From a virus, in the IMG/VR virus record IMGVR_UViG_3300050821_005065, positions 8,158 to 72,157 of that record: DNA of 64,000 nt, one strand, 5' to 3'. The first letter of the stretch is position 1; each line of letters opens with the position of its first letter. Below the pieces are notes generated by a model that saw only the letters and a program-made list of their open reading frames with translations, searched no databases and was not told the origin of the DNA. The translations under genes and the position numbers were made by a program. Below are positions 5,380 to 40,095 of the stretch, piece by piece.

Positions 5380-8300
5380 AGCGCCTCCTTCTCATCTTCG
5401 CGCTGCTGTGCGGCTCGGCCTTCGGGACGACCTATTTCGCGCCCACTTCCGCCGGATCGAACAACGGTACGGACTGCGCGGACGCTTACGCGATTGGGGA
5501 CGTGGCGCACGGTATCAACGTCTCGGGAAATTGGACGGCGGGGAATACCATACACGTCTGTTCGGGAACATATACCGGATCGGCAGGATCGACGCTCATT
5601 ACAGCGGCGGGCAGCGGATCGAGCGGCAATCCGATCAATCTCTATCTCGATCCCGGAGCGGTTCTGACCGCTCCCTACTGGGCGGCAGGAAATGGGGCAA
5701 TCAACATCTCCGGCCAAAGTTGGATTACCGTGGATGGATGGGTGGGTCATTCCTGTGGTTTCGTTAATGCCGTAGATGTGACTTGCGGCGGAGCGATAAT
5801 TGAAAACTCCGCGAATGGCTCGAAGCTTGCCAACCAACAGAATTCCCGTGGAGTATTCGCCGATCCCTGCCAGAACTGCATCGTCCGTGGGATTAATTTT
5901 CAGAATCTCTACGTTCACACCCTGCCACAAGCGGTGACTTCAACCACCATCGTCGGCTCCGGGAACGGCGCTACGATTACGATCAACTGCACGGCATCCT
6001 GTCTCTTTCCGGTTGGAGCTGTCGTCAGCTTAATTCAGACCTCGAACGCGAGCATCAACTCGCACAATGGCTGCGGCCAGCCCATCACGATTACCAACGT
6101 CAGTCCTTCGACGCAGGTTACAGGTACGATCAACTCGACTTTCTGCGGTCTGACTCCGTCCGGCAGTTCCACGGGCGGAGCGGTAGCGGAAGTCGGTATC
6201 TCCAACTCTCAAGTAAACGCGGTTTACTTCTCCGGCCAGAACACACAGGTTTGCAATAACTGGATTTCCAATTCTGCTTGGGCCATAATTGCGCACGCCG
6301 AAACGAATGATACCGGGATTCAAATTTGCCATAATCATATTGACTCCAGCGACCACACCGTCGCCTACTCACCCAACAACGAGACCACGGCTTATACAGC
6401 CTATATCTACGGCAACCACTTCACGAACTTCATGAACTGGGATTCTGGTTGCGGGCCGGAGAATGGAGCCTGTTCAACGTGGGATACGGGATCGAATAAC
6501 TATCACCACGATGGTATCCACTTCTTCGATGGCGGAGTCAGCGTCTCCTACACGATGTTCATTTATAACAACGTGTGTGACGGAACTATTGGAGTGAACG
6601 CAACCGGCTGCTATTTCGCGGAAGGCACGACCTCCTCGAATCTGGCCTCAACAACTTACTATTTCAACAATGTAGCTGTGAGCCAGCCGACCAACACCAG
6701 CGGCCAAGGGCACACGATGTTCGTCGGCGGATGCCTCTCCGGTGGATCGACGCGGAATTGCTTCGTTTACAACAATACGGTGTTATCGGCGGCAAACGCC
6801 TCCGATGTAGCATACGACACCTCCGGCACGGACGCGCTGTTCAAGAATAACGCGGCACAATCCAGCGGCTCATACCTGCAATGGAATAACTGGACGATCA
6901 CAACGCCCTCGACCGACATCGACTACAACGCCTATGCCGATAATGGGCAGTGCGGCGGTAACGGTTGCTGGAATTGGGGCGCTCAAGGCATCGACGCCTC
7001 TAGCCTGGCAGCATGGAAGTCTGCGTGTGTCTGCGATAGCCACGGAGTATACGCGGCTTCACTCGGAATCAATTCCAGTACGTACGTTCCGACGAGTACA
7101 GGATCGTTAGTCTACCATGCCGGAGTCAATCTAACCTCGGTTTGCAGCGGCCAACCCAGTCCCGGTTTAGGCGATTTGTGCTCGGATGCGGCTGGAGTCG
7201 CAAGGCCGAACTCGGCATGGGATGTGGGAGCATTCCAGTTCGGAGTAACTGTCACGGTCGCCACTCCAACGCTCTCTCTGGCAGCGGGAAGTTATGCCAA
7301 CGCGCAAACGACTATCTGTGCAACGAGCACTCCGGGAGCATCCTGCGTCTACACGGCAGATGGCACCACACCAACGGTCTCCGGCACAACCTGCACTGTC
7401 ACAAACGGCAACCTTGCACCGAATAACTACGTGCTCCCGGTAAGTCAGTCAGTGACGATTGCAGTTATTGGTTGCCTCTCTGGAGATACGGCAAGTTCGA
7501 CCGTCTCGGCAGCCTATACCATCACCTATTCCTCGACGATAGCGGCCAGCAACTTCGGTTTACAATGTGGCTTCAGCAATGGAGCGTGCAAGAATCCCTC
7601 TCCTCCGCCGCTGGTCCTGTGGCCGACCTCAATTGCGACACCCTCAGTGGTTCGCATGTTGAGTTCCAACACCGATTGGGCAACGATGCAGCCGAACTCC
7701 AGCGGGATTGTTTACACCGACCTCGACGGCTACCTCGACGCACTGGCGGCGACGGCGCTTGTAAGCGGGAATCCAGCTGCAGCCGACGAGGTATTTATCT
7801 CGGTGCCATGCTATCTAGCAGCCGCTCCGACGCCATGCCCCACGGCCAGCCAGCCGGCGCACGGAACCAATAGTCCGCCCGCCGATCTGGTCGCTTCCGG
7901 ATCTCCATCGTTCAACGCCTTCGTGACAGCGTTCGTTAACCACTGCTCGGTTGCGGGAAATTGCGTCAAAAATCTCATCAAGTATTACGAAATGTGGAAC
8001 GAACCCAACCTGCCTTACTCATGGGCGGGGACGGAACTTCAGTTGGAGCAGATGATTGCTCCTGCGGCACAGATCATCGCGGCCAACGTTCCGAACGCCG
8101 TGATCATGACGCCCTCTTTTAGTTCAGGAGGAAGCGGTTACACCACCTACGCAAGCAACTGGCTAACGTTTGAAAACACGGTTGGACCTTTTTCGAGCAT
8201 CGTCTTGCTGCACGACTACCTTGGGACTTCCATCCCAGAATCCCGCGGCCCGCCTGGTGCCTTTGCCACAGCCGTCCACGGTGTCGCCGGCTGGTCGAAC

Positions 8301-12555: not shown

Positions 12556-15132
12556 TTGAGCACTTTGCCCATTGGCGCAATCGGAGGTGATCCCCAAGGG
12601 GGGCAAGAGACCGGAGGCACGCCGCAAAACGTCGCGGAAACTTCATGGCAGAATCCCTCACAGGCCAGTCCAGAAGACGACAGTTACTTCTCGACCCAAG
12701 GTGTATCCGATGACGATCAGAAGATGCTCAAAGACATTATCACGGACTACCGCTCGAACTGGATGCAGGACCGGATTGAACGATTAGCGCAGTGGATGGC
12801 AAACCTACTCTACTGGAAAGGCGTGCAAGTTCTCGGCTGGGATGCAAGTTCAAACTGCTGGTATGACGCGCTCTCGTGGGCCAGAAACAACAGCCAGGAA
12901 TCGGGGGAAGATACCGACCTTGAGCGCTGGATCAATCCTCTGGTGCTGATGTTCTGCAATGTATTCACGGCCACCATGAGCCAGGGGATTCCAAAGCCCG
13001 TGATTAAGCCAGAGAACGCCAACCCGGAACTACAGGACATCGTAACCGCCAAAGCCAGCAAAGAAGCCATCGACATCATCCGCAGCAAGAACGAATTCAC
13101 CAAGATCATTTTCTCGATTTACGAACTCTTGTTTCTCTTCGGCTCTTACTTTCGCTACACCCGTGCCGTGATTGACGGCAAAATGTTCGGCTACGAAGAG
13201 CGCCAGCAGTTTGCAGACATGGAGATCCAGACCGGCCCGCATTTTACCTGCCCGAACTGCGGCACGGAAAGCCCAGCAGAATCTCCCGATGGAATGAATT
13301 GTCCAAGCTGCGGCGCGTTTATGGGGCAGGAAAGCTACTACGCCGCCGGAGAAGGCAGCCGTACAAGCCTGAAATCCGCCGGGACGCAGAAGATTCCGAA
13401 AGCTGGCGTGAAGTGGTCTCTGCACTCTCCATTAGAAATTGATTGTGACCCGAAGTGCAAAGGGACTCACCCTCTGCGGCAGACGGCGATTCTCGCGAAA
13501 GATTGCGAGATCGATTTCTCCGAAGCCTGCACCATGTTCCCAAAGTTTAGAGACCGGATCAAACCAGGCGCGGGCTCGCCAACGACGCCCAACGCCGATC
13601 TAGAGCGCATCAACCGCATCATGGCAATCAGCGCGCTTGGGGGAATCACCGCCGACAACGAGATGGTGAATCCAACCTACTCGGAAGTCTGGGTACAGCC
13701 GTGGGCCTATGCCAAGAAAAAAGATTGGGACTTCGCCGACCGTATGCGCGCCAAGTTTCCCGAAGGCTTAAAGATTTCGATGGTGGGAGAAGAAGTCGTA
13801 GACATCCGCGCAGCCGTCCTCGAAAAAGAGTGGAGCCATTGTGCGCTGTATGCCAATCAAGGCGTCTACTGTGCGGCCTTGGCGAATACGGCAGTTAGCT
13901 TCAACGCCAGATTCAATCGGACGATGTGGATTCTGGACGACTGGGCGGCGCGGGCGGCCCTTGGATTGAATCTCGCCAATGCGTCGATGGTCGATACCGA
14001 GAAAATGAGCGGGAAGCCGGTTCCGGCAGGCACCTTAACCCCCGTGCCGATGAAGATCAACGGGCAGAATATTCCGATGGAGCAAATTGTTGCTCACTAC
14101 GAATTGCCCATCAACGCGGCCCTCTGGAACTACCCCATGATGCTCATGACCTTTGCAGAATTGATCTTGGGGATTCCGCGGCAACTCGGAGGACAGGGAA
14201 CGCAGGACGATGTTGAAACGCTCGGCGGCCAGCAGTTGCAACTCGCACGGTCGCTCACCACACTGAAGCCCTACTTCAAGAACGTGAAAAACGAGTCTGC
14301 CGAAGCCGACCAGAACGCGATTGAGTGCTTGCAGAATTTGATGAAAGTGGGTGCGGTCAAAGAGATTCAGGATGTCATCGAGTCGAAGGGTGGAGCCTTC
14401 CAGAACCAAACCGTCAAGTGGGACCAGATGACGGGGAACGTGAGAATTTCCGCGGATGAAGATCAGGAACTCCCAGCCTCGCCCGAAGAGTTACGCACAG
14501 CCGTGCAGATGATGTTCCAGGAATTGACCAAAGGCAATCCGGCGGCCGCGAAGTGGTTCGACGTGCCGGCCAATCAGGACCAGGCCCTCAGTTCGATGGT
14601 TCCTGACAGCGTGAACCCTACAGAAGCGCAACGGCTCAAGACCGAGGCCGACATTCAAACCATCGTGGATCAGGGCGTGCAAGTCTCCTTGAACCCGGAT
14701 GGCAGCCAGGGGACACAACTTCCAGTTCAACCCGAAGCGTGGGAAGACTACTCCGTCGCCAAAGAAATCGTACAGCGTTACATGCTGGAAAATTATCAGC
14801 TACGAACCGAAAAGCCGGATCGCTGGCAGGCTCTGTCGCAGTATTACTCGCAACTCAAACAGAGCGAGATGCAGGTTGGGCAAGAGCAGGCACAGAGACA
14901 GCTTGCGGTTACGACCGCTGGTCAGCCGAAGCCGCCTGCGCCCGACCCGGCGATTCAAAGCGAATTCCAGCAGCAGCTTCAGGCCGCACAGCTTGCGATT
15001 CAAACGCTCGTGAGAATTGCTCAAGTAGATCCAGTCTTGACGGGCGGACAGATGAAAGATCAAGTCGCCGCCAGCAAGGAAGTAATCGATTCGACCGTGA
15101 ATGCCGCCAAATTAATGAATGGTGGGAAATAA
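12556..15132 (+). CDS. Portal protein with zinc-ribbon insertion
   Basis: 858 aa, upstream of scaffold and capsid; helical, Q-rich C-terminal barrel as in podoviral portals; CPNCG...CPSCG insertion. Confidence 0.75.
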   Translation: MSTLPIGAIGGDPQGGQETGGTPQNVAETSWQNPSQASPEDDSYFSTQGVSDDDQKMLKDIITDYRSNWMQDRIERLAQWMANLLYWKGVQVLGWDASSNCWYDALSWARNNSQESGEDTDLERWINPLVLMFCNVFTATMSQGIPKPVIKPENANPELQDIVTAKASKEAIDIIRSKNEFTKIIFSIYELLFLFGSYFRYTRAVIDGKMFGYEERQQFADMEIQTGPHFTCPNCGTESPAESPDGMNCPSCGAFMGQESYYAAGEGSRTSLKSAGTQKIPKAGVKWSLHSPLEIDCDPKCKGTHPLRQTAILAKDCEIDFSEACTMFPKFRDRIKPGAGSPTTPNADLERINRIMAISALGGITADNEMVNPTYSEVWVQPWAYAKKKDWDFADRMRAKFPEGLKISMVGEEVVDIRAAVLEKEWSHCALYANQGVYCAALANTAVSFNARFNRTMWILDDWAARAALGLNLANASMVDTEKMSGKPVPAGTLTPVPMKINGQNIPMEQIVAHYELPINAALWNYPMMLMTFAELILGIPRQLGGQGTQDDVETLGGQQLQLARSLTTLKPYFKNVKNESAEADQNAIECLQNLMKVGAVKEIQDVIESKGGAFQNQTVKWDQMTGNVRISADEDQELPASPEELRTAVQMMFQELTKGNPAAAKWFDVPANQDQALSSMVPDSVNPTEAQRLKTEADIQTIVDQGVQVSLNPDGSQGTQLPVQPEAWEDYSVAKEIVQRYMLENYQLRTEKPDRWQALSQYYSQLKQSEMQVGQEQAQRQLAVTTAGQPKPPAPDPAIQSEFQQQLQAAQLAIQTLVRIAQVDPVLTGGQMKDQVAASKEVIDSTVNAAKLMNGGK

Positions 15133-28415: not shown

Positions 28416-29002
28416 GTCGCGGCCAACAGGGTCAAGTGTTTCAGACCGGACAGCAGGAGAACAAAAACTTCACGACCGGCGCCAATACTGATTTCGATCT
28501 CGCACAGCAGGATGTAAACTCATTCGCCAATCAAGTAGGACAATTCCGCGCAGCCAATCCCTTTGTGCAAGGCGGCCAAGTGCAGACCGCCGAGAATCAA
28601 GCTATCGCCGATACTGCTGGAGCAGGCGGGGAAGCTCTTGGACAAACTTTGCAGAGTGCTGCGGTGCGAGGCGGCCAGAATCCGAATGCTGCCATCGCCG
28701 CGACGGAAGATCAAGCCACGAAGAATATGCGGGATGTTTCCGCACAGGAAGCCAATGCCACATTAGGCCGTGCTACGGCTGGAGCTGGATACGGAGAAAC
28801 CGCACTCGGGGAAACCGGGAAAGTTGCCGGGTTACAGGACACTCTTGCGGAACAACAAGGCCAGCTTGCCCAAGGAGCCCTTGGCACGGAAGAACAGGCA
28901 GCCCAGCAACCGAGTTTTGGCGATATCTTCGGTAGTGCCTTCGGCCAGCAGTTAGGAAAGGGTCTCGCAGGCGGAAACTTCCAGGTGAACGCCAATGTCT
29001 AA
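28412..29002 (+). CDS. Internal virion (ejection) protein
   Basis: Q/A/G-rich helical protein (MSRGQQGQ...); context. Confidence 0.6.
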   Translation: MSRGQQGQVFQTGQQENKNFTTGANTDFDLAQQDVNSFANQVGQFRAANPFVQGGQVQTAENQAIADTAGAGGEALGQTLQSAAVRGGQNPNAAIAATEDQATKNMRDVSAQEANATLGRATAGAGYGETALGETGKVAGLQDTLAEQQGQLAQGALGTEEQAAQQPSFGDIFGSAFGQQLGKGLAGGNFQVNANV

Positions 29003-30440
29003 CGACTACAAATCCGGCCTCGACGACCAAGACGAACTCGGGCAATTTCCTTCTGCCGCGTCACCTCTTGCGGCTTTGGGGATTGATCCCGACGAAGCCA
29101 GAGCGAATCCTGAATTCCTAGCAAGGCTCATGAAAGGTCCATCACAGGGTACGCCGCTATCCTCTCCTTCTCCCAGTGCGGTGGCGGCCGGGGCCACTGG
29201 TGGTGCTGGTGATACAGAGCCAACCGATGAAGAAGGTTATGGACGCGCTGGCCTGTCGAAGACCTTCCACGCTATGTCGGATGCGTCCAAAGCTGCAAAC
29301 GCTGTGCCGACAGAGACTCCAGCCGATATTACGCGACTGCAATCCCAGGAAGAGAAACTTCAGCCCAAAACTCCTTTGCGGGACGCCTCGGGAAATATGC
29401 TGGATCAGTACAAACCCTCAACCGGGCAGAAGATCTGGCGCGGTGTGCGTGGCGGACTTACTGGTCTCGCTACTGGTGGAGTTTTGGGTGCCGGACTCGG
29501 AGCGGCCTATCCGCAAGATGTGAAAGGCGGCACTGCCTACAACGCGCCGAACAAGCAGTATGAGCGCACAGAGCAAAAGCGCACTCAAGATTTGAGTGCA
29601 ACAGAATCCAATCTCGACCAAGCCCGTAAGAACTGGGGCGAAGCGGTCAAAGCGCGGCAGGCCCAAGCGGGAGAGTTCGGAAAAGTCGCGGCCCTCGGGA
29701 AAGACCTCACCACCGGAGCCACAGGATTAATCAACGCGGAAAATAAACCGGAGACGGAAGAGAACAAGACCAAGGCAAAACTGGAGTTGTCACAGAAGGA
29801 ATTTGAGCAGCGGCGCCAATCGTTGACGACCGATCCGACTCTATCAAAACTCTCTCCTCTCCAAAAAGCTCTGTACATGGCAAACGGGAAACTCCCCGAC
29901 CCCCGAGAGCCGAACGAAGCCGACGTACAGGCCGCGAACATGGCACGGGCACTCACAACGTTTAAGCTTCAGACTGGGCGCGCCCCGCAAACGCTCGAGG
30001 AAATGAACTCAGTCATCGCAACCGCCAAGGGCGAACTCAATAAAGGGAAGGGTGCGAACAATCCCGACGCCGCCAACCTCCGTGTGGCCGCTCGACTCGC
30101 CGAGACTCACTTAAAAGAATTGCAGAACATGATGAAGGCTCCGTCGATTGCCTATGGTTCTCCAGAAGTGAAGAAACAACTTCAGGACCAAGTAGACGAA
30201 GCCAAAGAACGGTACGACGATTTACAAGAGCAGTTAACCCAAGCCACAGGGCCAACGCAGACACCCGCCGCTACTCCCGCGCAACCTGCTCCCGCTGCAC
30301 CCGCAGCATCGCAACCCGCGAAACCGGCGCAGAATGCTCCCGCTACCAAGCCGCAACCCGCCCCGGATGGGACGCGCCGACAAGCTCCAAATGGAACCAT
30401 CGAAGTGAAGCAGAATGGTAAATGGGTGCCGGAGAGCTAA
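28995..30440 (+). CDS. Internal virion (ejection) protein
   Basis: Gly-rich hydrophobic segment, coiled coil and C-terminal PDGT...NGKWV motif; context. Confidence 0.6.
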   Translation: MSNDYKSGLDDQDELGQFPSAASPLAALGIDPDEARANPEFLARLMKGPSQGTPLSSPSPSAVAAGATGGAGDTEPTDEEGYGRAGLSKTFHAMSDASKAANAVPTETPADITRLQSQEEKLQPKTPLRDASGNMLDQYKPSTGQKIWRGVRGGLTGLATGGVLGAGLGAAYPQDVKGGTAYNAPNKQYERTEQKRTQDLSATESNLDQARKNWGEAVKARQAQAGEFGKVAALGKDLTTGATGLINAENKPETEENKTKAKLELSQKEFEQRRQSLTTDPTLSKLSPLQKALYMANGKLPDPREPNEADVQAANMARALTTFKLQTGRAPQTLEEMNSVIATAKGELNKGKGANNPDAANLRVAARLAETHLKELQNMMKAPSIAYGSPEVKKQLQDQVDEAKERYDDLQEQLTQATGPTQTPAATPAQPAPAAPAASQPAKPAQNAPATKPQPAPDGTRRQAPNGTIEVKQNGKWVPES

Positions 30441-33400
30441 TTGGACGCCGCCCAGCAGTTTACCGACATCCCTAGCGGGTACAAAGTTCTCCCACCCGCC
30501 GCGCCTCTGGATCAATTCTCCGACGTTCCAGACGGCTATAAAGTTCTTCCGCCAAAAGCGCCAACCGCACAGCAATCCTCCGCCGCAATCGGGCGAGTTA
30601 CCAGTCCGCTATCGCCTGCCCCGATACCACCCGCTTCTCTCCCGCCATTCTCCTTAGGTGCTCCTCCGTCAACGCCGCGTTCGACCGCAGAGGGCTTGAC
30701 CACCGAGCAGCAAGAGCGCCGTGCCGGAATGCCACTTGCAATCCAGCCGGCCAGCGGCAGTTTAGAGAACACTCACCCCGAACAGGTCGTCGCACAACCC
30801 CTAACCAATCAGACCCTAGCCACTCCGCCCAAGCCGGCTCCAATCGATACCTCGCTTGGGCCGAACGCTCCCTTTACCCCGGAAGAAGTTGCGGCACGCC
30901 ATCAAGAGAAGCAGGCCGATGAAGCCGCCGATAGTTCCATGCTGGCAAATTACAGCCGAGCCGTAGAAGCCGGTAGGCGAATGGGATCAAAAGCGGGCGA
31001 ACAGATTGCAGCCTTGGGGACGCCGATTGAAAAGGGCTATGGGGATCTGACTGACGAGAACCGCGGAGCCTTTGAGAAAGAGCACCCTGCCGCTGCGGGC
31101 ATCGGGAAAGCCGCTGGCGGATTCGTGGGCCAGATGGCCGCCGACCCGGTTACCTATTTGTTTATGGGGAGTAGCGAACTGGCGCATCCCATGCTCGACC
31201 GGATTATCAGTTCGGGATTCCGGTTTGGTCTGGGCGTCCACGCCGTCAACGCTGCGCGTGATCTGCAAAAGAATTGGAATGATTACACTCCCGAGAAACG
31301 GTATGAGGTCGCAACCGAAGCGGGGCTAAGCGGATTGCTGGCTGCTGGCGCCCACCAGATCAGAGACTTTCTCAAAGGACCGTATGAAGCTTTACCTACT
31401 GAGCCGACCGAGCGCGCCGAATCTCTCTTCCGGAATCTGGTCCACAAAGCCGGCGGAACCGTGGGAGAAAATCCTACTCTTGAGGAAGCCAACGCCGCAT
31501 ACCGATCCGCGATCGCCAACCTGCACCCAGACGTAAATCCAGAAGCGGCCGAAGATGCGCGCAACCTGAATGACGCATGGGCCAAGCTGAAGCAGTCGGG
31601 GCGTTTCACCGGGAAACAGCGATTCAGTGATGTGCCGGAAGGCTACAGAATTCTTCCGCCTGCCGCTGGAGCAGAACAGCCCACCGTTCACGCCTCGAAC
31701 GATGTCGAAGAGCTCCGTGCCTCCGCCGAACGCCAAGCCCCGAAAATAGGAGATGCGGTTAGTAGCGCCACTGAAGGCGTTCCCGGCACCAAACTGGAAG
31801 CCGTGCGCGACTCCAAAGACTCTGACCGAATCACAGATAAAGCCGAGCGCCAAGGCGTCGAACCTTCCCAGATCAAAGACATTGCCGCGGCGAAGGTCAC
31901 CGTCCCGGATCAGGAAGCCGCCAATCAGGTATTAGAAAATCTTCACCCCGAGATGCCCGTTGAGGAAGTCAACGGCATGGTGACAGGGGAACCCGGTAAA
32001 AACGCGGTGCGTCAAACGCAAGCCGTCGTATCGACGGATCAACCGGGCGAACCTGTCAAGAACGCCGAAGTGCTCTTACAGACGCCGGAGATGCACAAAG
32101 CCACGGAAACCACTCATGATGACTACCGTAAAGCTCAGGAACTACGCGCTGCGGGTAAAGAAGCCGAAGCCCAGGCTGTCGAAAATCGTATCGCAGGCGA
32201 GCACGAAGAGGCCCACCAAGCGGCCATTGCACGACAGGAGGAATCAAATGCCATTCAAGAGCGAAGCGCAGAGGGGGTTCATGGAAGCGCACAAGAAGAA
32301 GATGGAGGCCAGCGGAGTCAACATGAAAGAGTGGGAGAGCGCCAGCAAGGGCAAGGATCTTCCGCCGCGCGCCCCCAAGCCGCCCGACAAGAAAAAGAAG
32401 AAGCCCCCCGCGCCCCCAAGCCGCCCACCCGAGGAGTTTCAGGGGCCAATGACCTAACTCATAATCTCAAGAACCAAGCAATTGAGATTCGTGACTCTCA
32501 AGGCAACTGGAAGCAAGGCACCGTTCTAGCCGACAGCCTTACCCAAGGGGGAGATCGGCCACGTCGATTGCGCGGAACCTTCGCCGATGGGACAGAATTC
32601 GACAACATCAAACTCTCAGACGTTCGCAGGCCGGAGGTGCAAACAGGTTCCGAGGGAATCGACTTCGACGGAACCCTGTTCACCGAGCGTCCCGATGGAT
32701 CAATCGGCGAACCCATCCCAGAGCGGATCGCAAGCTTAAAAGAACGCATTGCCAATGGAGAGGAAGTAGTAATCGAGAGTCACCGAGCGCGTCAACCGGG
32801 AGGAGTTTCAGCCATTCAGGACGCGCTGGAGAAAGCAGGTTTGCCGCGCCTGCCAGTCTCCGCCAAGAAGAACGTAGAACCCACTCTCGTTGACGACGAA
32901 AAACAAAACGCTCCGGGAGTCACCCAACAAAAAGTAGCGACGAATCGAAATACGCCGTTACCCGATGTGCCGCGCGCCCCACGCCCGCCCAGCTACGGTC
33001 CTCCCAAGAAAGATTTTCAAGGCTCCGTCCCTGCGGAGAGTTTGGGCTTCAATCACACGATCGATACTGGTCCCGACATCGGCGCAAAGGCTCGCGTAGA
33101 GACTGAGAAGCGTATGGGTGGGCCTCTCCCCCGTGGGCAGGCAGAGCGGAGAGCGCCGGAACCCAAGCCCGTTGACACGTCCTCTGAAGCCATCAAAGCC
33201 GCCTCCAACCCAGAACGCGATACCGACATCATGGCGAAGCTGAAAGAGGAGCATCCTGATTGGTCTTTAAGTCAACGGTTACAAGAGGCGGCGAAACTCG
33301 CCAATCCCCCCAAGGAGAAGCCCGTTGAAATCTCGTCAAAAGATGTATCGAAGCCTGTACCGCAAGCAAGTGAAGCAGGAAAGAAAGAAACTGTTCAAGT

Positions 33401-36400
33401 CAATCAGGGTGCTGGAGGCGCTGATAAAGTTGGACCCGGTACTAAAGGCGAAATAGCTCCGGGTAAAGTCGGCGAAATGAAAGTTGCCGACCTGAAGGTT
33501 GCGCCGAACAAATTCCAGTACAAACTTGGCACGGATGCGGCAGGGACTTCGACTCTTCTCAAAGAGGCGAAGACGTTCAATCCCGATCTGGCAGGAACCA
33601 TTTCAGTTTGGAAAGACCCCGCGGATGGCAAAACTTATGTGGTCAACGGTCATCACCGCTATGAACTGGCGAAGCGTACGGGACAGGATGAAGTTGCGGT
33701 GCGGCACATCGTCGCGCAGGATGCGGCAGAAGCGCGCGCGGTCGGAGCTCGGCAGAACATCGCTGAAGGTCGCGGCACTCCTGTGGATGCAGCCAAATTC
33801 TTTCGCGATACCAGCATCACCCCCGAAGACCTCGACAAGCACGGTATCTCGCTCGGCGAAGCTACCGCCGCGAAAGGGCTGGCACTCTCGAACCTTGACG
33901 ACTCGCTATTCAGCAAAGTGGTAAATGGCGATTTGCGCGAAGGCCGCGCCGTCGCTATCGGAGAGGCGACCAAAGACCCGGCAGAGCAGAAAGCAATTCT
34001 ATCGCTGCTTGAACGCAAGGAGCGCATCGGGGCGAAGGTCTCGGACGATACGCTTTCCGAGTTGATTCGTCTTGTCAAGGGCGCAGAGCAGAAGACAGAG
34101 ACCACAGCAAACTTATTTGGCACACAGGAAATTAACCGCTCCCTTGCTCTCGAAAAAGCGGAAATCTCCGCGCACATCAAGCAGCAGTTATCGAAGGATA
34201 AAAAGTTGTTTGGGTTTGTCGCGAAGGAGGGGCGCGCGGAGGAACTGGCGCGCGCTGGCAACAAGATCGACGTAGAGAAGTCCAAGGAAATATCGACTGG
34301 CGCAGCTCAGGCGGAAGAGGTTTATAATAAACTGAGTGCGCGCGGAGGGCCAATTGCAACCATCCTCGATGAAGCCGCCCGAAAACTCGCCGACCGTGAA
34401 GGCTCCCCGGCCTCCATTAAATCCGACGCCTACGAGCGCATCCGGGAAGAGGTATCCCAAACTCTCAGGGGAACCGAAAGAGAAGTTCCTGAAAGAATGG
34501 AAGCGGGAGCAGGACCAAGTAAAGAAGTAGAACCGACGCTCCCCGGCATGGAGCATGTCCCCGCCGAACGTGCCGAAGCGGTCTCCGAACAACAAGGCAA
34601 AGACCTCACCGCCAAACTCACCGAGCCGCCGAAGTCCATCGAATCGAAAGCGGGTGAGATTGAGCAACGTTCGCCCCTCTTCCGCGACACGGAAGCGAAT
34701 CCGCAAAAGGGATTATTCGGCGGCGAATCCGGATCCCTCGACATCTCCAAACTTTCCCCCTCTCACATCAAGCAACAGTACGACCAAGCCGTCTCTGAAT
34801 TCATTTCCGGCAAACTGAAAATCGGCGACAAGTATCACGATGTTGCCAAGCACGATGAGACCGTAGCCAACACGCTTCACCTGGTAGACAACGCTCCCCG
34901 CTATTTCAAAGCCAAAGCCGACGCCAATCTCAAAGGAGTCACCGCTGGATTAAACGACGATCAGATTCGTCTTGCGTCCATGATGGCCGATTCGGACTCG
35001 CGAGACTACCTGAAAGCCAACAAGCCCGATGAGTTCAAGCAAGCCACCTCCGACCCGGCAGTGATGGCCGCTGTAAAGAAGTTTGAACCGCTCCAGCAGG
35101 AACTCACCAAAGACCGTCAAGCGTTGGGCTGGCCTGTCCGCATGAGCATGGAAGCCATTGAGCAGCCAGACGGAACTTTCAAAGTAATGGACCGGAGCGG
35201 CGCGGACCTAGGCGACTTCAAGACTGCGAAGAAAGCCAACGAGTTCATTCAGGAGAATGGTGAAGTCGAACCGCATCTGAAGCGCACCTACCCCGAGCAC
35301 TCGAAGAACCCTCTCCCTGCCGAGACTGGTGTAGGAGATTTCACTCAAGCTTTCCCCCACGAAAAAGGCTTACGTCCGCCGAAGATGGACAAGAAGTCCC
35401 GCGAAATGTCGGCGGAATATCATTACGAACATGGGCGCAAAGATTTCTCTGGCTACACCGAGAGCTTCAAGCAGACCAAAACCGCCGTGCTGAAACAGAA
35501 ACTCTTTGACGACTTTGTAGACCGGGCAACCCCGTACTCCGCCGGGACCGCGCAACCTCCCAAGATCGAATACAACGGGAAGACCTACTACCGTCCCGAC
35601 ATCGTGCAGAAAGCCAAAGAAGGTGGAACCAAGCTTGAATCCTATGCCATGTATGATCCCACGCGCGGCGAAAAGTTCATGATCGCGAACCCCGAAGAAG
35701 GCTGGGCCACACTCGCCACCGGGAAGTCGGGAATCAAAGCCAGTGACCGATTCCTAGGTCCAAAGCCCGTAGTCGATGCGATGGAGAACTACGACACGTC
35801 CCGCGGCGGGGAATCTTCAAAGCTACGCCACTTCTTTCAAGAGCAGATCGTGGGACTCTTCGGCCCAGTGGTTCACATCAACAACATTGTCCGACGAATC
35901 GGGCAGGCAACCGGCATGGGAACATTTGATCCGCGCTCCTGGCCTTCGATCGCGCGTGTGATTGCCAGTCCAGAACTGAGACAGCGGGTGATGAGTGGAG
36001 TTGATGACGCCACCATCGACATGCTCACCAAGTACGGAGCCTACACCGACTGGGGCGATATCGGGACGGTCAACAAATATATCGGCGGAAACCTGAATCC
36101 GGCATCATGGGTTAGATCCTTTGGTAAAGGTGTTCTGTTCGATCCCAAGTTCGCAAAGGGCTGGGGCGGTCTCGATCCGAAAGCGCGCGTAGTGGTCGCG
36201 GATTATTTCAAAGAGCACTTCCCGAAGATGACCGACGCCGAAGTAGCCAAGGCGATCGAAGATGGATTCGGAAATTACAACCGCGCCAACTGGACTGAGC
36301 GCCAAAGACTTCTTGCCAAGTTCACTCTTTTCCCCGGCTGGGATGCAGCCTCCGCAAAATGGTTTCTGCGTCATCCCTTCCGCGCCGGCGTGGCCGGTTC

Positions 36401-37274
36401 GCTCGTAGTCCTTGCCATCAATCGGGCCTTGAATGCTCTCGGGAAAAACAAAGACCAAGACGCCAACGATCTCAGCTATGTCCACTTCGGCGATAGGAAA
36501 CTTTCTTCCGGCTTGATCATGGATAACATGGGAAACCACTTCATGTCGCCCGTGCTGGGAGCGTTGCAAGCGAAGTTGAGTGGGGATGACGTTGCTGCAG
36601 GAGCCACCGAAGGAGCGCAGAGAGGCAGCGCAGCCCTTGCGGGAACTTTGGCTGGACCCGTGGTCGAAATGGTTGCGGATCAAATCTACAACCGGAAGTA
36701 TGCTGGCGGAGCCTCGGAACTGGTAAAGCCGGAAGACAAATACACTCCCGGCACCTGGTTGCCGAACGTGGAACTGGAGAAGCGTGCGGCCTTTGCTGCC
36801 CTGAAAGGCACACCAGCTCTCAATCGCTTTATCAATCCCAAAGGGGAATGGGATTGGGCGCAAGGCATCGGCGGCGGAGTGCTCGGCGTCACCAATTACA
36901 AGTACGGCGCAGAGGAACGGTTCAAGGCCAACGTCGCCAAAGCCGCGACCTATGGGCAGACATTGAACCAGCTTGCCATGAAGGAACCCGAAGCCGCGGC
37001 CAAGTTCGCCAGCGACCCGCAGCGCGCAACCTACCTGATGTTCCACGATGACCTTGAGCAGATGGCGCGTGATCTGAAAGAACTGGATTCCCAGATCGAG
37101 CGAGTACGCAGCGCGGACCTGCCGCACACCGAACGGCAGAGCATTTTGGAAGACCTGAAGAACAACCGCAACACCCTGCTCAAAGCGGCCGATGGATTGA
37201 ACGACGCCTTAAACGAAGCGAAGAACCAATCTCGCAAGAAGCAAACGGATTACTGGAAGAGCAAAGTACAATGA
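30441..37274 (+). CDS. Large polyvalent internal virion protein (J-like, RelA/SpoT-like, HAD-like and ParB-like domains)
   Basis: 2277 aa; LHPDVN helical hairpin; KD..RI..K..IKDI..EVLLQTPEM; GIDFDGTLF..LVDD; VVNGHHRYELA. Confidence 0.75.
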   Translation: MDAAQQFTDIPSGYKVLPPAAPLDQFSDVPDGYKVLPPKAPTAQQSSAAIGRVTSPLSPAPIPPASLPPFSLGAPPSTPRSTAEGLTTEQQERRAGMPLAIQPASGSLENTHPEQVVAQPLTNQTLATPPKPAPIDTSLGPNAPFTPEEVAARHQEKQADEAADSSMLANYSRAVEAGRRMGSKAGEQIAALGTPIEKGYGDLTDENRGAFEKEHPAAAGIGKAAGGFVGQMAADPVTYLFMGSSELAHPMLDRIISSGFRFGLGVHAVNAARDLQKNWNDYTPEKRYEVATEAGLSGLLAAGAHQIRDFLKGPYEALPTEPTERAESLFRNLVHKAGGTVGENPTLEEANAAYRSAIANLHPDVNPEAAEDARNLNDAWAKLKQSGRFTGKQRFSDVPEGYRILPPAAGAEQPTVHASNDVEELRASAERQAPKIGDAVSSATEGVPGTKLEAVRDSKDSDRITDKAERQGVEPSQIKDIAAAKVTVPDQEAANQVLENLHPEMPVEEVNGMVTGEPGKNAVRQTQAVVSTDQPGEPVKNAEVLLQTPEMHKATETTHDDYRKAQELRAAGKEAEAQAVENRIAGEHEEAHQAAIARQEESNAIQERSAEGVHGSAQEEDGGQRSQHERVGERQQGQGSSAARPQAARQEKEEAPRAPKPPTRGVSGANDLTHNLKNQAIEIRDSQGNWKQGTVLADSLTQGGDRPRRLRGTFADGTEFDNIKLSDVRRPEVQTGSEGIDFDGTLFTERPDGSIGEPIPERIASLKERIANGEEVVIESHRARQPGGVSAIQDALEKAGLPRLPVSAKKNVEPTLVDDEKQNAPGVTQQKVATNRNTPLPDVPRAPRPPSYGPPKKDFQGSVPAESLGFNHTIDTGPDIGAKARVETEKRMGGPLPRGQAERRAPEPKPVDTSSEAIKAASNPERDTDIMAKLKEEHPDWSLSQRLQEAAKLANPPKEKPVEISSKDVSKPVPQASEAGKKETVQVNQGAGGADKVGPGTKGEIAPGKVGEMKVADLKVAPNKFQYKLGTDAAGTSTLLKEAKTFNPDLAGTISVWKDPADGKTYVVNGHHRYELAKRTGQDEVAVRHIVAQDAAEARAVGARQNIAEGRGTPVDAAKFFRDTSITPEDLDKHGISLGEATAAKGLALSNLDDSLFSKVVNGDLREGRAVAIGEATKDPAEQKAILSLLERKERIGAKVSDDTLSELIRLVKGAEQKTETTANLFGTQEINRSLALEKAEISAHIKQQLSKDKKLFGFVAKEGRAEELARAGNKIDVEKSKEISTGAAQAEEVYNKLSARGGPIATILDEAARKLADREGSPASIKSDAYERIREEVSQTLRGTEREVPERMEAGAGPSKEVEPTLPGMEHVPAERAEAVSEQQGKDLTAKLTEPPKSIESKAGEIEQRSPLFRDTEANPQKGLFGGESGSLDISKLSPSHIKQQYDQAVSEFISGKLKIGDKYHDVAKHDETVANTLHLVDNAPRYFKAKADANLKGVTAGLNDDQIRLASMMADSDSRDYLKANKPDEFKQATSDPAVMAAVKKFEPLQQELTKDRQALGWPVRMSMEAIEQPDGTFKVMDRSGADLGDFKTAKKANEFIQENGEVEPHLKRTYPEHSKNPLPAETGVGDFTQAFPHEKGLRPPKMDKKSREMSAEYHYEHGRKDFSGYTESFKQTKTAVLKQKLFDDFVDRATPYSAGTAQPPKIEYNGKTYYRPDIVQKAKEGGTKLESYAMYDPTRGEKFMIANPEEGWATLATGKSGIKASDRFLGPKPVVDAMENYDTSRGGESSKLRHFFQEQIVGLFGPVVHINNIVRRIGQATGMGTFDPRSWPSIARVIASPELRQRVMSGVDDATIDMLTKYGAYTDWGDIGTVNKYIGGNLNPASWVRSFGKGVLFDPKFAKGWGGLDPKARVVVADYFKEHFPKMTDAEVAKAIEDGFGNYNRANWTERQRLLAKFTLFPGWDAASAKWFLRHPFRAGVAGSLVVLAINRALNALGKNKDQDANDLSYVHFGDRKLSSGLIMDNMGNHFMSPVLGALQAKLSGDDVAAGATEGAQRGSAALAGTLAGPVVEMVADQIYNRKYAGGASELVKPEDKYTPGTWLPNVELEKRAAFAALKGTPALNRFINPKGEWDWAQGIGGGVLGVTNYKYGAEERFKANVAKAATYGQTLNQLAMKEPEAAAKFASDPQRATYLMFHDDLEQMARDLKELDSQIERVRSADLPHTERQSILEDLKNNRNTLLKAADGLNDALNEAKNQSRKKQTDYWKSKVQ
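32248..32457 (+). CDS. Nested overprinted small basic protein (69 aa, MPFKSEAQRGFM...)
   Basis: AGGAGGA (32236-42) lies 5 nt before an ATG in the +1 frame inside the 2277-aa gene; N-terminus resembles small phage MPFKS.AQR..M proteins. Confidence 0.6.
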   Translation: MPFKSEAQRGFMEAHKKKMEASGVNMKEWESASKGKDLPPRAPKPPDKKKKKPPAPPSRPPEEFQGPMT

Positions 37275-37795: not shown

Positions 37796-38470
37796 ATGCC
37801 CAGCAAGATTGCGTCCCGTCCTGTAGAAGAGAAAGAAAAGTTCTTTGTCAATCTCTTTATCCGGGAAGGGATGAACCCAGGATCAATCGCAAAATGCGAA
37901 AAACGCGCCCACCTGAAGCGGGGAGACGGCAAGAAGATCCTGCGGCGGAAGTCCGTCAAAGCGGAACTCCAGACGAAAACCGCACCGGCACGCGAGGAAA
38001 TCTTACGTCAGGAAATCATTGGAGAAGCTGTTGTCAAAGCCAAGGCTGCCCAGCAGGAAGAACTTGCCAAAGTCGTCAAAAGTATCACTTTCCAAAAACT
38101 CAATCGGGAAATTCTCATCGACCAGCTCATGCAAGGGGCAGTCGGTTTGAACTGGCACATGTACCCCAGCGAGAAATTGGAAGTCATCAAAGCCGCGCTC
38201 GTATTGGAGCAAGACTCTAAAACCATCAATGGCTCATCAGAGAACACCCCAGGCGTCTATCAAAGCGCCTTCCGCCGCCTAGCCCCTCCCCCGGCATCCC
38301 CCATTCTAGAGCCTCCTAAAGCGCAAGAAGGAGTATTCGACCTCTACCCGGGTAAGACGGTTCCGCCGGTCGAACTGGTTGCCACCCTCCCGCCCATCGG
38401 TGAATCTACCGAAGAAGCCCCTGAGAAGCCTTCCTCGAACCCCAACGTCATCACGGTTGAGATTGGATGA
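37796..38470 (+). CDS. Putative terminase small subunit
   Basis: Directly upstream of and overlapping TerL; basic HTH-like N-terminus, disordered C-terminus. Confidence 0.5.
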   Translation: MPSKIASRPVEEKEKFFVNLFIREGMNPGSIAKCEKRAHLKRGDGKKILRRKSVKAELQTKTAPAREEILRQEIIGEAVVKAKAAQQEELAKVVKSITFQKLNREILIDQLMQGAVGLNWHMYPSEKLEVIKAALVLEQDSKTINGSSENTPGVYQSAFRRLAPPPASPILEPPKAQEGVFDLYPGKTVPPVELVATLPPIGESTEEAPEKPSSNPNVITVEIG

Positions 38471-40095
38471 CGTCGCCGTACCCGCCTCTCCAGCTTCCAC
38501 CAGAAAATATCGAGCCGATCTGGTGGCCTATCAATTCTGCCCAGCAAGCCTACCTTAATTGCAAAGCCCAAATCGCAGAATTCGGCGGAGAATCTGGAGG
38601 AGGAAAAACCCAGGTACTCGTGGCCGATGCGATGCAGGAACGGGATAACCCCCGGCTGCGCGGCCTTCTTCTTCGTACCACCCTAGAGGAGATGGCCGAA
38701 CTGGAGGACATTCAGCAGAAAGTCTACGAACCTTTGGGGGCGCGGTGGACCCGTAAGCGCTCGATCGCAGCTTGGCGCTTCCCCTCTGGAGCCACCATTC
38801 GGCCGGGCTACCTCGCGCACGACAAGCACCTAAAACGCTATCAAGGCAACCCGTACACATGGCTGGGCATTGATGAAAGCGGGCAGCACCCGGAAAGCCG
38901 AATCCGGTTCATGTTGGCATGGCTGACTGCTCCAAAAGACTCTGGCCTGTTCGCGCGAGCTCGCTTCACCTCCAACCCTGGCGGGGAAGGCCACGGCTGG
39001 CAAATGAAAGTCTTCCTGCGAAACCGCTGCCCGGTTCACTATCCAGCCACATATGCCGACGACAAGCCACTCGAAACCAGTGTCTATCCAGGGAGAGTCT
39101 ACCGCGGTGCCACTTGGACCGATGATTCGTTCGTTCACAAAACCACAGCCTTCATCCCGGCTGGCTTGGCCGATAATCCGCTCTATGGAGAGGACAAGCT
39201 CGCCAGCCTCTTAACTCAGTCGAAGGCCATCCAACAGCAACTACTCTACGGCTGCTGGTGCAACGCTGCAGGACTTTACTTCGATTTCATGCGGCCGGAT
39301 ATGGTCGTACCGTATGCCTCAATTGGAGACTCCTGGTGGTGGCAGCATTTTTGGTCGATTGATTATGGATTCGGAAACTCGGCGGCCGCTGCCGGCATGT
39401 ACGCGATTAACCCCAACGGAGTCGTATTCAAAACTCGTGAGCGGATTGAACGCAAGATGGCCGCGCTGAAGTTCGCAAAATGCCTCTGTAAAGATGGCTT
39501 CTCCGCAGTGGATTATCCCCAGCAAGGCCCGCAAGAAAACTGGCTGAAGAAACTAAAAGCGCGAGATCCAGAAAATCCCCGCATGAGCTTTGTGGTGATG
39601 GACGAAGCGATGGACCAGCACCGCGGCACAGGAAAAAGCATTTACGGAGTGATGTCGGAAGTCTTCGCAGAATACGGGCTTGGCTCGATGAAAGCCGCGC
39701 ACGATCCTGCGGGCAACGCCCAAGTGCTTTACAACGGGCTTGCGAATAAGTTCTGTGTGCTCACGCGCGACTCCGCCGATCTGCCCCTTAGTTACCGCTC
39801 GATCTCCAGCCGAATCGTCGATGAGCGGAAGGCCGTCAAGAAGATCCACGGAGCGTGGGAAGATGACAGTTACGACGAAACCTCTTACGCTTACAACACT
39901 TGGCGCCAGAACAGCGAGAAGCCGGCGCGCACCGCCCTACAGGAAGAATTAGCCGATCTGAGAAAACAAGGGCTGGATGAAACCTCACTCGCCCGAATCG
40001 CTTGGACCCGAGAGAAGGCCATCAAAGAGAAAGAACAAGAATCGTCCAAGGGGATCAGGCTTTCCCGGTCTCTCTCCCCTCCAAGGAAACGTTAG
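38467..40095 (+). CDS. terL: Terminase large subunit
   Basis: Q motif, Walker A GGESGGGKT, Walker B WLGIDE, TSNPGG coupling motif, RNase H-like IDYGF and DDSYDE. Confidence 0.93.
   Translation: MTSPYPPLQLPPENIEPIWWPINSAQQAYLNCKAQIAEFGGESGGGKTQVLVADAMQERDNPRLRGLLLRTTLEEMAELEDIQQKVYEPLGARWTRKRSIAAWRFPSGATIRPGYLAHDKHLKRYQGNPYTWLGIDESGQHPESRIRFMLAWLTAPKDSGLFARARFTSNPGGEGHGWQMKVFLRNRCPVHYPATYADDKPLETSVYPGRVYRGATWTDDSFVHKTTAFIPAGLADNPLYGEDKLASLLTQSKAIQQQLLYGCWCNAAGLYFDFMRPDMVVPYASIGDSWWWQHFWSIDYGFGNSAAAAGMYAINPNGVVFKTRERIERKMAALKFAKCLCKDGFSAVDYPQQGPQENWLKKLKARDPENPRMSFVVMDEAMDQHRGTGKSIYGVMSEVFAEYGLGSMKAAHDPAGNAQVLYNGLANKFCVLTRDSADLPLSYRSISSRIVDERKAVKKIHGAWEDDSYDETSYAYNTWRQNSEKPARTALQEELADLRKQGLDETSLARIAWTREKAIKEKEQESSKGIRLSRSLSPPRKR

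Follow-up and report, generated by a model that had tools for sequence, protein, structure and literature searches.

The stretch of DNA analysed here, called the window below, is 64,000 nucleotides (nt) long (positions 8,158 to 72,157) and is part of a 72,157-bp IMG/VR virus record, IMGVR_UViG_3300050821_005065, with direct terminal repeats; the guanine-plus-cytosine (GC) content of this DNA is 57%. Its plus strand carries a giant open reading frame (ORF) of 2277 codons (30441–37274) for a polyvalent-type multidomain protein, and fully within this ORF, on the same strand and at an offset of +1, lies a second ORF of 69 codons and a TAA stop (32248–32457; stop codon at 32455–32457), whose product is referred to as P0001. 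A Shine–Dalgarno (SD) sequence, AGGAGGA (32236–32242, plus strand), and a 5-nt spacer, ATCAA, precede the nested ATG at 32248; a first-pass annotation had pointed to this SD, the +1-frame ATG and the 69-amino-acid (aa) product, and its coordinates and translation hold exactly. Residues 1–39 of P0001 (32248–32364) form a conserved family domain with a predicted N-terminal segment followed by three short helices, and the remainder (32365–32454) is a basic Pro/Lys-rich tail (PRAPKPPDKKKKK...) that has an isoelectric point (pI) of 10.29 and differs among relatives. We conclude that 32248–32457 is very probably a true protein-coding gene that lies in the +1 frame of a giant polyvalent gene, a reading that draws on observed sequence features, homology, a conserved arrangement and frame-specific selection.

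A RelA/SpoT nucleotidyltransferase domain of the giant protein (PF04607; residues 459–562, 31815–32126 on the plus strand; E 3.4e-06, 27.8 bits against a cut-off of 27) is encoded directly upstream of the nested gene, and residues 988–1316 of the protein, a ParB-like region, match the C-terminal part of PHROG 21 (phrog_21). The giant protein has 29 long homologues with varied domain sets, on which the precomputed Pfam domains are PF13563, PF18760, PF18763 and PF04607. Because of the RelA_SpoT and phrog_21 matches and these variously built homologues, the giant protein fits the polyvalent proteins, which are packaged in the virion and injected according to the available text of Iyer et al. (2017; PMC5512222). 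Like the proteins described in that text it is a very long mosaic multidomain protein, here with a RelA/SpoT domain and a ParB-like region; with 2277 aa, several unrelated domains and packaging genes close by (a large terminase gene lies 1.2 kb downstream), it may by analogy be packaged in the virion as well. A blastn search with the giant gene against 50,697 GenBank phage records gave no match. The bases of the nested gene correspond to giant residues about 603–672, after the RelA/SpoT domain and ahead of the next conserved block (from near residue 672), and are read in the giant frame as NAIQERSAEGVHGSAQEEDGGQRSQHERVG, a Gly/Glu/Gln/Arg/Ala-rich stretch; the earlier description of the main frame as a linker between two domains was thus accurate.

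An open +1 frame is not significant in itself, because the DNA has 57% GC and alternative-frame ORFs of 85–141 aa are also present elsewhere in the giant gene. The start signal is more telling, as the window holds eight AGGAGG-N4-9-ATG sites where 2.77 are expected, a number reached in none of 100 shuffles, and the nested start carries one of the eight. The RNA around it (32190–32310) is less folded than 198 of 200 shuffles (z +2.30). An upstream in-frame ATG at 32116 would give a 113-aa version, but the conserved start is that at 32248, since the match to the family hidden Markov model (HMM) begins exactly there. No sigma-70-like promoter was found in 31500–32800. Contigs of two soil-metagenome runs match 32202–32900, and 32166–32371 plus 32379–32583, with zero differences and zero indels, and the frame structure is therefore not an assembly slip. 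The nested protein is absent from the proteins listed on record for the contig, where the giant protein appears as the window's own, from which it would seem that gene callers overlooked the fully nested, same-strand gene, as had been anticipated.

The MPYKS family of small proteins

P0001 belongs to a family of small proteins without a name, here called MPYKS and defined by an alignment of 52 sequences (A2) and by an HMM made from 148 domain sequences. Three small proteins of 57–65 aa that resemble P0001 came up in a word-based search, and phmmer against 1.84 billion representatives returned 234 at E ≤ 1e-3 and five at E ≤ 1e-10, so that the stand-alone homologues mentioned in the first-pass annotation do exist; they also make up 54 of 80 IMG/VR loci described below, with 45–107 codons each. 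Members follow the pattern MP[YF]KS.AQ..YF.AN...LE.QGV.V.EW..ASKGK.LP, after which comes a basic tail; M1, S5, Q8, G23 and V24 are invariant in A2, and P2 and A7 are at least 90% conserved. P0001 begins MPFKSEAQ, in agreement with the N-terminal motif M1-P2-[YF]3-x-S5-x-A7-Q8, and its GVNMKEW..ASKGKDLP follows the core G23-V24-x-V26-x-E28-W29...S33-x-G35-x-x-L38-P39 apart from a change of V26 to M. With its short basic tail it is 69 aa long, the small forms being of about 45–80 aa. An HMM built from the other members, with the window excluded, matches the nested ORF at E 1.3e-23 over model positions 1–47. This match, the 234 phmmer representatives and the excess of AGGAGG-N4-9-ATG sites are beyond chance.

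The domain is characteristically N-terminal. In the best 150 of the 234 representatives there were 153 domain matches, of which 107 begin at residue 1–2; the other 46 carry extra N-terminal sequence before the domain, which opens with Met, Val or Leu in 43 of them. The sole protein among these best 150 with the domain far from its N-terminus is P0107 (586 aa), where it is C-terminal and likewise starts with Met. In 37 listed representatives the domain is the N-terminus of a long protein; the partner regions seen in fused forms are NUDIX, Ferritin plus DUF6321, DUF5661 or of unknown kind.

Scans of P0001, the 52 members and the fused members against Pfam, PHROG and NCBIfam gave no model for the domain, and tblastn of P0001 and P0104 against the 50,697 GenBank phage records gave no match at the thresholds used. 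The small phage and bacterial proteins of DUF3008 (PF11450) likewise start MP.KS.AQ, and this is the nearest named ESM Atlas cluster to P0001 by language-model features, at a score of 0.79, below the 0.9 bar. Membership of DUF3008 was rejected, as none of the 52 family members matched PF11450 at E ≤ 10 and P0001 matched no Pfam family at E ≤ 1; the resemblance is a lead only. A homologue search set to 'longer' lengths scored nothing, which is weak evidence.

Conservation of the nested arrangement

IMG/VR and JGI metagenome contigs were searched with the giant-frame segment around the RelA/SpoT domain, yielding 11 distinct loci (with L002 and L008, one and the same contig, counted once). Since the nested frame played no part in finding these relatives, it is not favoured in the sample. 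The linker is present in seven of them (L002, L003, L004, L007, L009, L011 and L013) and absent from the stretch fetched in the other four (L005, L006, L010 and L012); the records of L005 and L006 (36% and 56% complete) contain no family member, an uninformative result. In all seven linker loci the giant frame contains a family ORF at offset +1, that of L011 ending at the contig edge, and in L009 and L013 the two-frame unit lies some 450–540 nt further downstream with its offset unchanged. A linker with a broken nested frame was not seen among the 11 loci. The expectation that relatives would keep both the open +1 frame and its start signal was thus borne out, with the leader acaggagg or similar in five of the seven; L011 has acaggggg.

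Scanned with alignment A2, IMG/VR gave 370 matching stretches, of which the best 80 were kept. In 18 of these the family ORF is nested at offset +1 in an open frame of 1045–3039 codons (one, L062, being the L002 contig), in none is it nested at offset +2 in a giant frame, and in eight it forms the N-terminus of an ORF of 311–1213 codons; the remainder are the 54 stand-alone genes. Counting the window, there are 25 nested loci, of which 23 start with ATG and two with GTG, and the nested ORF is intact in all 24 that are not cut by a contig end, as L011 is. The GC content of the nested loci spans 0.32–0.58; leaders are GGAGG-like in the GC-rich ones and A-rich without an SD in the AT-rich ones, which may be an adaptation to hosts that do not use SD pairing. 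Among 253 pairs of 23 nested loci, only 25 show similarity downstream of the unit and only 28 upstream. The flanks are mostly unrelated, and therefore the two-frame unit behaves as a cassette in mosaic genes. In a tree of 60 domain sequences (44 columns), which had no starred branch, the nested label was clustered, requiring eight changes against a shuffled mean of 18.7.

Selection in the two frames

Six of the loci found via the giant frame are complete and free of gaps, and they provide an unbiased set of 46 codons. Among them, mean pairwise amino-acid identity is 0.72 when the bases are read in the nested frame, compared with 0.48 for the giant and 0.55 for the third frame, and nucleotide diversity at nested codon positions 1, 2 and 3 is 0.23, 0.136 and 0.355, which is the signature of a coding frame. 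A larger set of 22 loci and 40 codons (omitting L013 with its two-codon deletion, the cut L011, and L024, a near copy of L023, and representing L002 and L008 via L062) gave a synonymous share of differing codons of 45.0% for the nested, 5.3% for the giant and 20.9% for the third frame, and the six unbiased loci show the same pattern. The giant frame varies least at its third codon position (0.16), the reverse of the pattern of a frame that is itself constrained. Purifying selection is therefore seen on the nested frame while the host frame is kept open, and the suggestion that the +1 frame is the constrained one is upheld.

How readily the giant frame could have been open by accident can be judged from the stand-alone genes. 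Stops were counted in 30 of the 54; the 24 left out comprise near duplicates, two genes whose first codon is no start codon, two 107-codon genes, and the single loci L076 and L086. The frame equivalent to the giant one has a mean of 3.6 stops per 45 codons in these genes and is open in two of the 30, while the other alternative frame has 1.3 stops and is open in seven of the 30. The giant frame is nevertheless open in all nested loci; it is therefore kept open by selection or codon choice, with both frames in use, and the fact that such a stop-prone offset is held open in every nested locus also argues against repeated chance capture. The small gene appears to be the ancestral, constrained reading, because the broad family also exists as stand-alone genes and as an N-terminal domain, and the inter-domain linker of the giant protein would then be the overprint. 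The first-pass description of an 'overprinted' gene was correct in that two frames are coding and reversed in its direction, as the small gene is the older and the giant linker was laid over it. Over the nested gene the giant frame seems to be a passenger from which selection merely keeps stops out. Its homologues do share a consensus over the cassette, NA[IV]Q[EK]PS..VLQ...E.G..G..RG.VE, but this apparent conservation of the linker is the shadow of the nested gene and not a protein motif.

Alternative explanations

We propose that ribosomes would initiate independently at the internal AGGAGGA-N5-ATG and produce a basic protein of 69 aa, in which the conserved 39-residue three-helix domain would have a free N-terminus and be followed by the Pro/Lys-rich tail. 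Ribosomes translating the giant gene would read the same bases one position earlier as an inter-domain linker rich in Gly, Glu, Gln, Arg and Ala, and this two-frame unit would recur as a cassette at differing places in the mosaic giant genes of many phages. One other explanation for the data is that ribosomes starting at 32248 slip by −1 on a Lys-rich run (GAC AAG AAA AAG AAG AAG) into the giant frame, giving a long protein with the small domain at its N-terminus and the 69-aa form as a by-product. The occurrence of the domain at the N-terminus of long proteins (the eight of 80 loci and 37 listed representatives above) would fit this, as would the Lys-rich runs that close nested ORFs and, in the window, the peptide PRAPKPP, which the nested frame encodes and the giant frame encodes once more 41 nt further on. 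Programmed −1 frameshift sites of the dnaX type have the form A AAA AAG, and the nested gene resembles them in having a run of Lys codons shortly before its stop, but unlike them it has no canonical in-phase X XXY YYZ heptamer in the window. Such heptamers occur in eight of 23 nested and six of 30 stand-alone ORFs, which is no enrichment, and their position is not conserved. Lys-rich tails of this kind are also found in stand-alone genes, which have no frame to enter, and the parts of fused members that follow the domain have no similarity to the giant flanks at E ≤ 1e-4. We consider such recoding very unlikely. A shift in the other direction would take ribosomes of the giant frame by +1 into the nested frame, stimulated by the internal AGGAGG, to yield a truncated product of about 670 aa with the small domain at its C-terminus. 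A precedent is prfB, in which a +1 frameshift is stimulated by an internal SD-like sequence; here too an SD lies a few bases upstream, and P0107 carries the domain C-terminally in frame. Against this, the first domain codon is ATG or GTG in all 25 nested loci, the AT-rich loci lack an SD, and in many loci a nested-frame stop 0–13 codons ahead of the nested ATG leaves little room for a shift site. The domain is otherwise N-terminal and starts with Met even in P0107, so that a +1 shift is extremely improbable.

It could also be argued that the small gene was swallowed in a gene fusion and is now silent, its conservation reflecting constraint on the giant linker. Expression of the nested gene is indeed a deduction, and the giant frame also looks conserved, with the consensus given above. 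A silent relic is hard to reconcile with silent changes making up 45% of differing codons in the nested frame against 5.3% in the giant frame, with the low variability of the giant third codon position (0.16), opposite to that of a self-constrained frame, or with a start codon kept in 25 of 25 nested loci and an ORF intact in 24 of 24 uncut ones, and we regard it as having very little likelihood. Paired, compensating sequencing or assembly frameshifts that hide an in-frame domain of the giant protein are a general possibility in metagenome assemblies, and nothing more speaks for them in this case. The same offset is found in 24 other loci from different samples, the FKS motif is in frame in none of the 29 long giant homologues, and the two soil-run contigs are identical to the window without an indel; an artefact is refuted for practical purposes.

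Independent translation of an embedded gene is accordingly the reading that we prefer, and there are several points that count against it or limit its reach. Translation and use of the nested start signal are deduced from the sequence, and ribosomes of the giant ORF passing the internal site may keep initiation there low; in L004 the ATG has no clear SD motif. Seventeen of the 22 loci in the larger set were found with the nested protein, so that its codon count is biased towards the nested frame, and the unbiased set is small, at six loci. The tree is poorly supported, and a single origin of the nested state is neither demonstrated nor excluded by it. Zero family members were found in the 50,697 GenBank phage records, which hence offer no cultured system. 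As for function, no known family or fold emerged from Pfam, PHROG, NCBIfam, PDB sequence search, Foldseek or VIA-align.

Comparison with other overlapping genes

Embedded out-of-frame genes are already known in phages, with Rz1 lying inside Rz of lambda in the +1 frame and E inside D and B inside A of phiX174; as a rule such an embedded gene is taken to be the younger of the two and goes with one host gene only. The gene for P0001 is like Rz1, E and B in that it is a complete small ORF with its own start signal inside a longer gene on the same strand, with both readings used. It is unlike them in that the nested gene appears to be the older reading, from a broad family, with the host linker as the overprint, and in that the unit recurs between non-homologous flanks. 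What is new is an embedded gene that is both older and dominant, a host reading that is a linker selected to be open and otherwise unconstrained, and the recurrence of the unit in many unrelated giant genes across a wide GC range. Searches of the literature on polyvalent proteins and on overlapping or embedded phage genes gave no account of the family or the arrangement, although the supplements of Iyer et al. (2017) may hold relevant domain lists; the words 'overlapping', 'frameshift' and 'linker' do not occur in the available text of PMC5512222, which thus describes no nested gene. Watson et al. (2021; PMC8788219), on out-of-frame remodelled gene families in Escherichia coli pangenomes, and a review of overlapping genes mainly in eukaryotic viruses (PMC8227390) share the theme of coding DNA that is re-used in another frame.

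The phage proteome thereby gains a protein that is not on record for the contig, and with 18 of the best 80 IMG/VR loci from 370 stretches showing the nested state, the giant genes of many uncultured phages would contain a hidden gene of this kind, which automatic annotation tends to overlook where the two-frame arrangement occurs. The case also illustrates overprinting in an unusual direction, in which a long gene would have grown across an older small gene whose frame has stayed dominant in selection. As the linker of the giant protein appears to be a by-product held open through codon choice, the locus makes a useful test case for methods that detect dual coding, and it provides a caution for the reading of 'low-complexity linkers' in polyvalent proteins, whose conservation may be the shadow of another gene.

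Product and genomic neighbourhood

The pI of P0001 is 9.93 and the median of the 52 family members 10.15, so that of the 'basic DNA-binding core protein' suggested in the first-pass annotation the basic character stands; DNA binding is compatible with the data and is a guess. AlphaFold2 with A2 gave a model with a mean predicted local distance difference test score of 85.5, and of 88–94 over residues 1–40, showing an ordered N-terminal segment and helices at residues 6–14, 16–22 and 26–33. A PDB profile search returned one match at chance level (MatP, E 0.9). Foldseek gave no matches in PDB and, in BFVD, uncharacterised phage proteins only (E ≥ 0.098), and a wide VIA-align search found no chains at Z ≥ 2. 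In the ESM Atlas, P0001 falls among unnamed Uroviricota clusters (0.92).

The neighbourhood of the stand-alone genes offers some hints on function. The window contains an 858-aa ORF (12556–15132, plus strand) that is portal-like, of the P22/SU10 kind, by ESM Atlas features (0.92–0.97) and structure (template modelling score 0.55–0.73); it has no Pfam match and its homologues have no PHROG match, and it is probably the portal gene of this phage. Sixteen of the 54 stand-alone family genes lie 130–1390 nt upstream of a homologue of this portal-like gene, and for five of 30 an ORF of 984 codons or more ends at most 540 nt upstream of the small gene; some of these ORFs share domains with the cassette-bearing giants. 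An order of large terminase gene, small gene and portal gene does not extend to a general rule, as similarity to the large terminase subunit of the window was found upstream of stand-alone genes in two loci only. Nor is the neighbourhood always a head module, since the stand-alone small gene in L029 precedes a DNA polymerase gene: 306 nt downstream of it is an ORF (L029:5307–7784) for a family A DNA polymerase fused to a uracil-DNA-glycosylase-like domain.

Perhaps P0001 is a small basic protein of the head or portal module that works with virion-packaged polyvalent cargo, for instance in loading or in DNA binding, a suggestion that we make tentatively and consider rather less probable than not. 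A more specific proposal is that the unit is a mobile dual-coding cassette, in which a gene of the portal module has been captured in cargo genes so that the giant protein reads across it in another frame, and the small protein is an adaptor that loads polyvalent or other cargo proteins into the head, at the portal or on the DNA; this is doubtful. If it were so, long proteins with a family member at their N-terminus would be cargo carrying its own adaptor, and embedding would secure the joint inheritance and expression of adaptor and cargo during mosaic recombination. The link of the family to portal genes and to virion-packaged giant proteins is in any case a testable lead on the handling of cargo.

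In four AT-rich loci (L031, L033, L044 and L071; about 5 kb into each) an ORF of 984 to at least 1664 codons ends 5–13 nt before the stand-alone small gene, which is followed by two conserved ORFs of about 175 codons and has an offset to the giant ORF that varies; this arrangement may be the unfused counterpart of the nested state.

Downstream of the giant gene in the window, the large terminase subunit is encoded at 38467–40095 on the plus strand (phrog_979, E 1.7e-29), and its gene is overlapped by 4 nt by a 224-codon ORF (37796–38470) that may encode the small subunit. Nine other neighbouring ORFs had no PHROG match, and therefore the phage group is poorly charted.

Other features of the giant gene

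The start of the giant ORF at 30441 is provisional. A 481-codon ORF (28995–30440) precedes it in the same frame with one stop between, and the listed start is a TTG that is the codon right after this stop; read-through into the giant ORF is not indicated, because the N-termini of relatives are equally long or shorter. Just behind the nested family domain there is a 21-nt direct repeat on the plus strand, with a first copy at 32365–32385 that encodes PRAPKPP in the nested frame and a second, identical at 20 of 21 positions, at 32406–32426, where the giant frame encodes it. With a deletion between the copies, the nested ORF would run on into the C-terminal 1600 residues of the giant protein; this variant was looked for in the contigs of the two soil runs and was not seen. 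Related giant proteins have [KQ]AP[IKV]PP before the same downstream domain, and the second copy is therefore nothing unusual in such a protein. The motif F[TS]D[IV]P.GY[KR][VI]LPP is present three times towards the N-terminus of the giant protein (30441–31660), at residues of about 7–18, 26–37 and 395–406.

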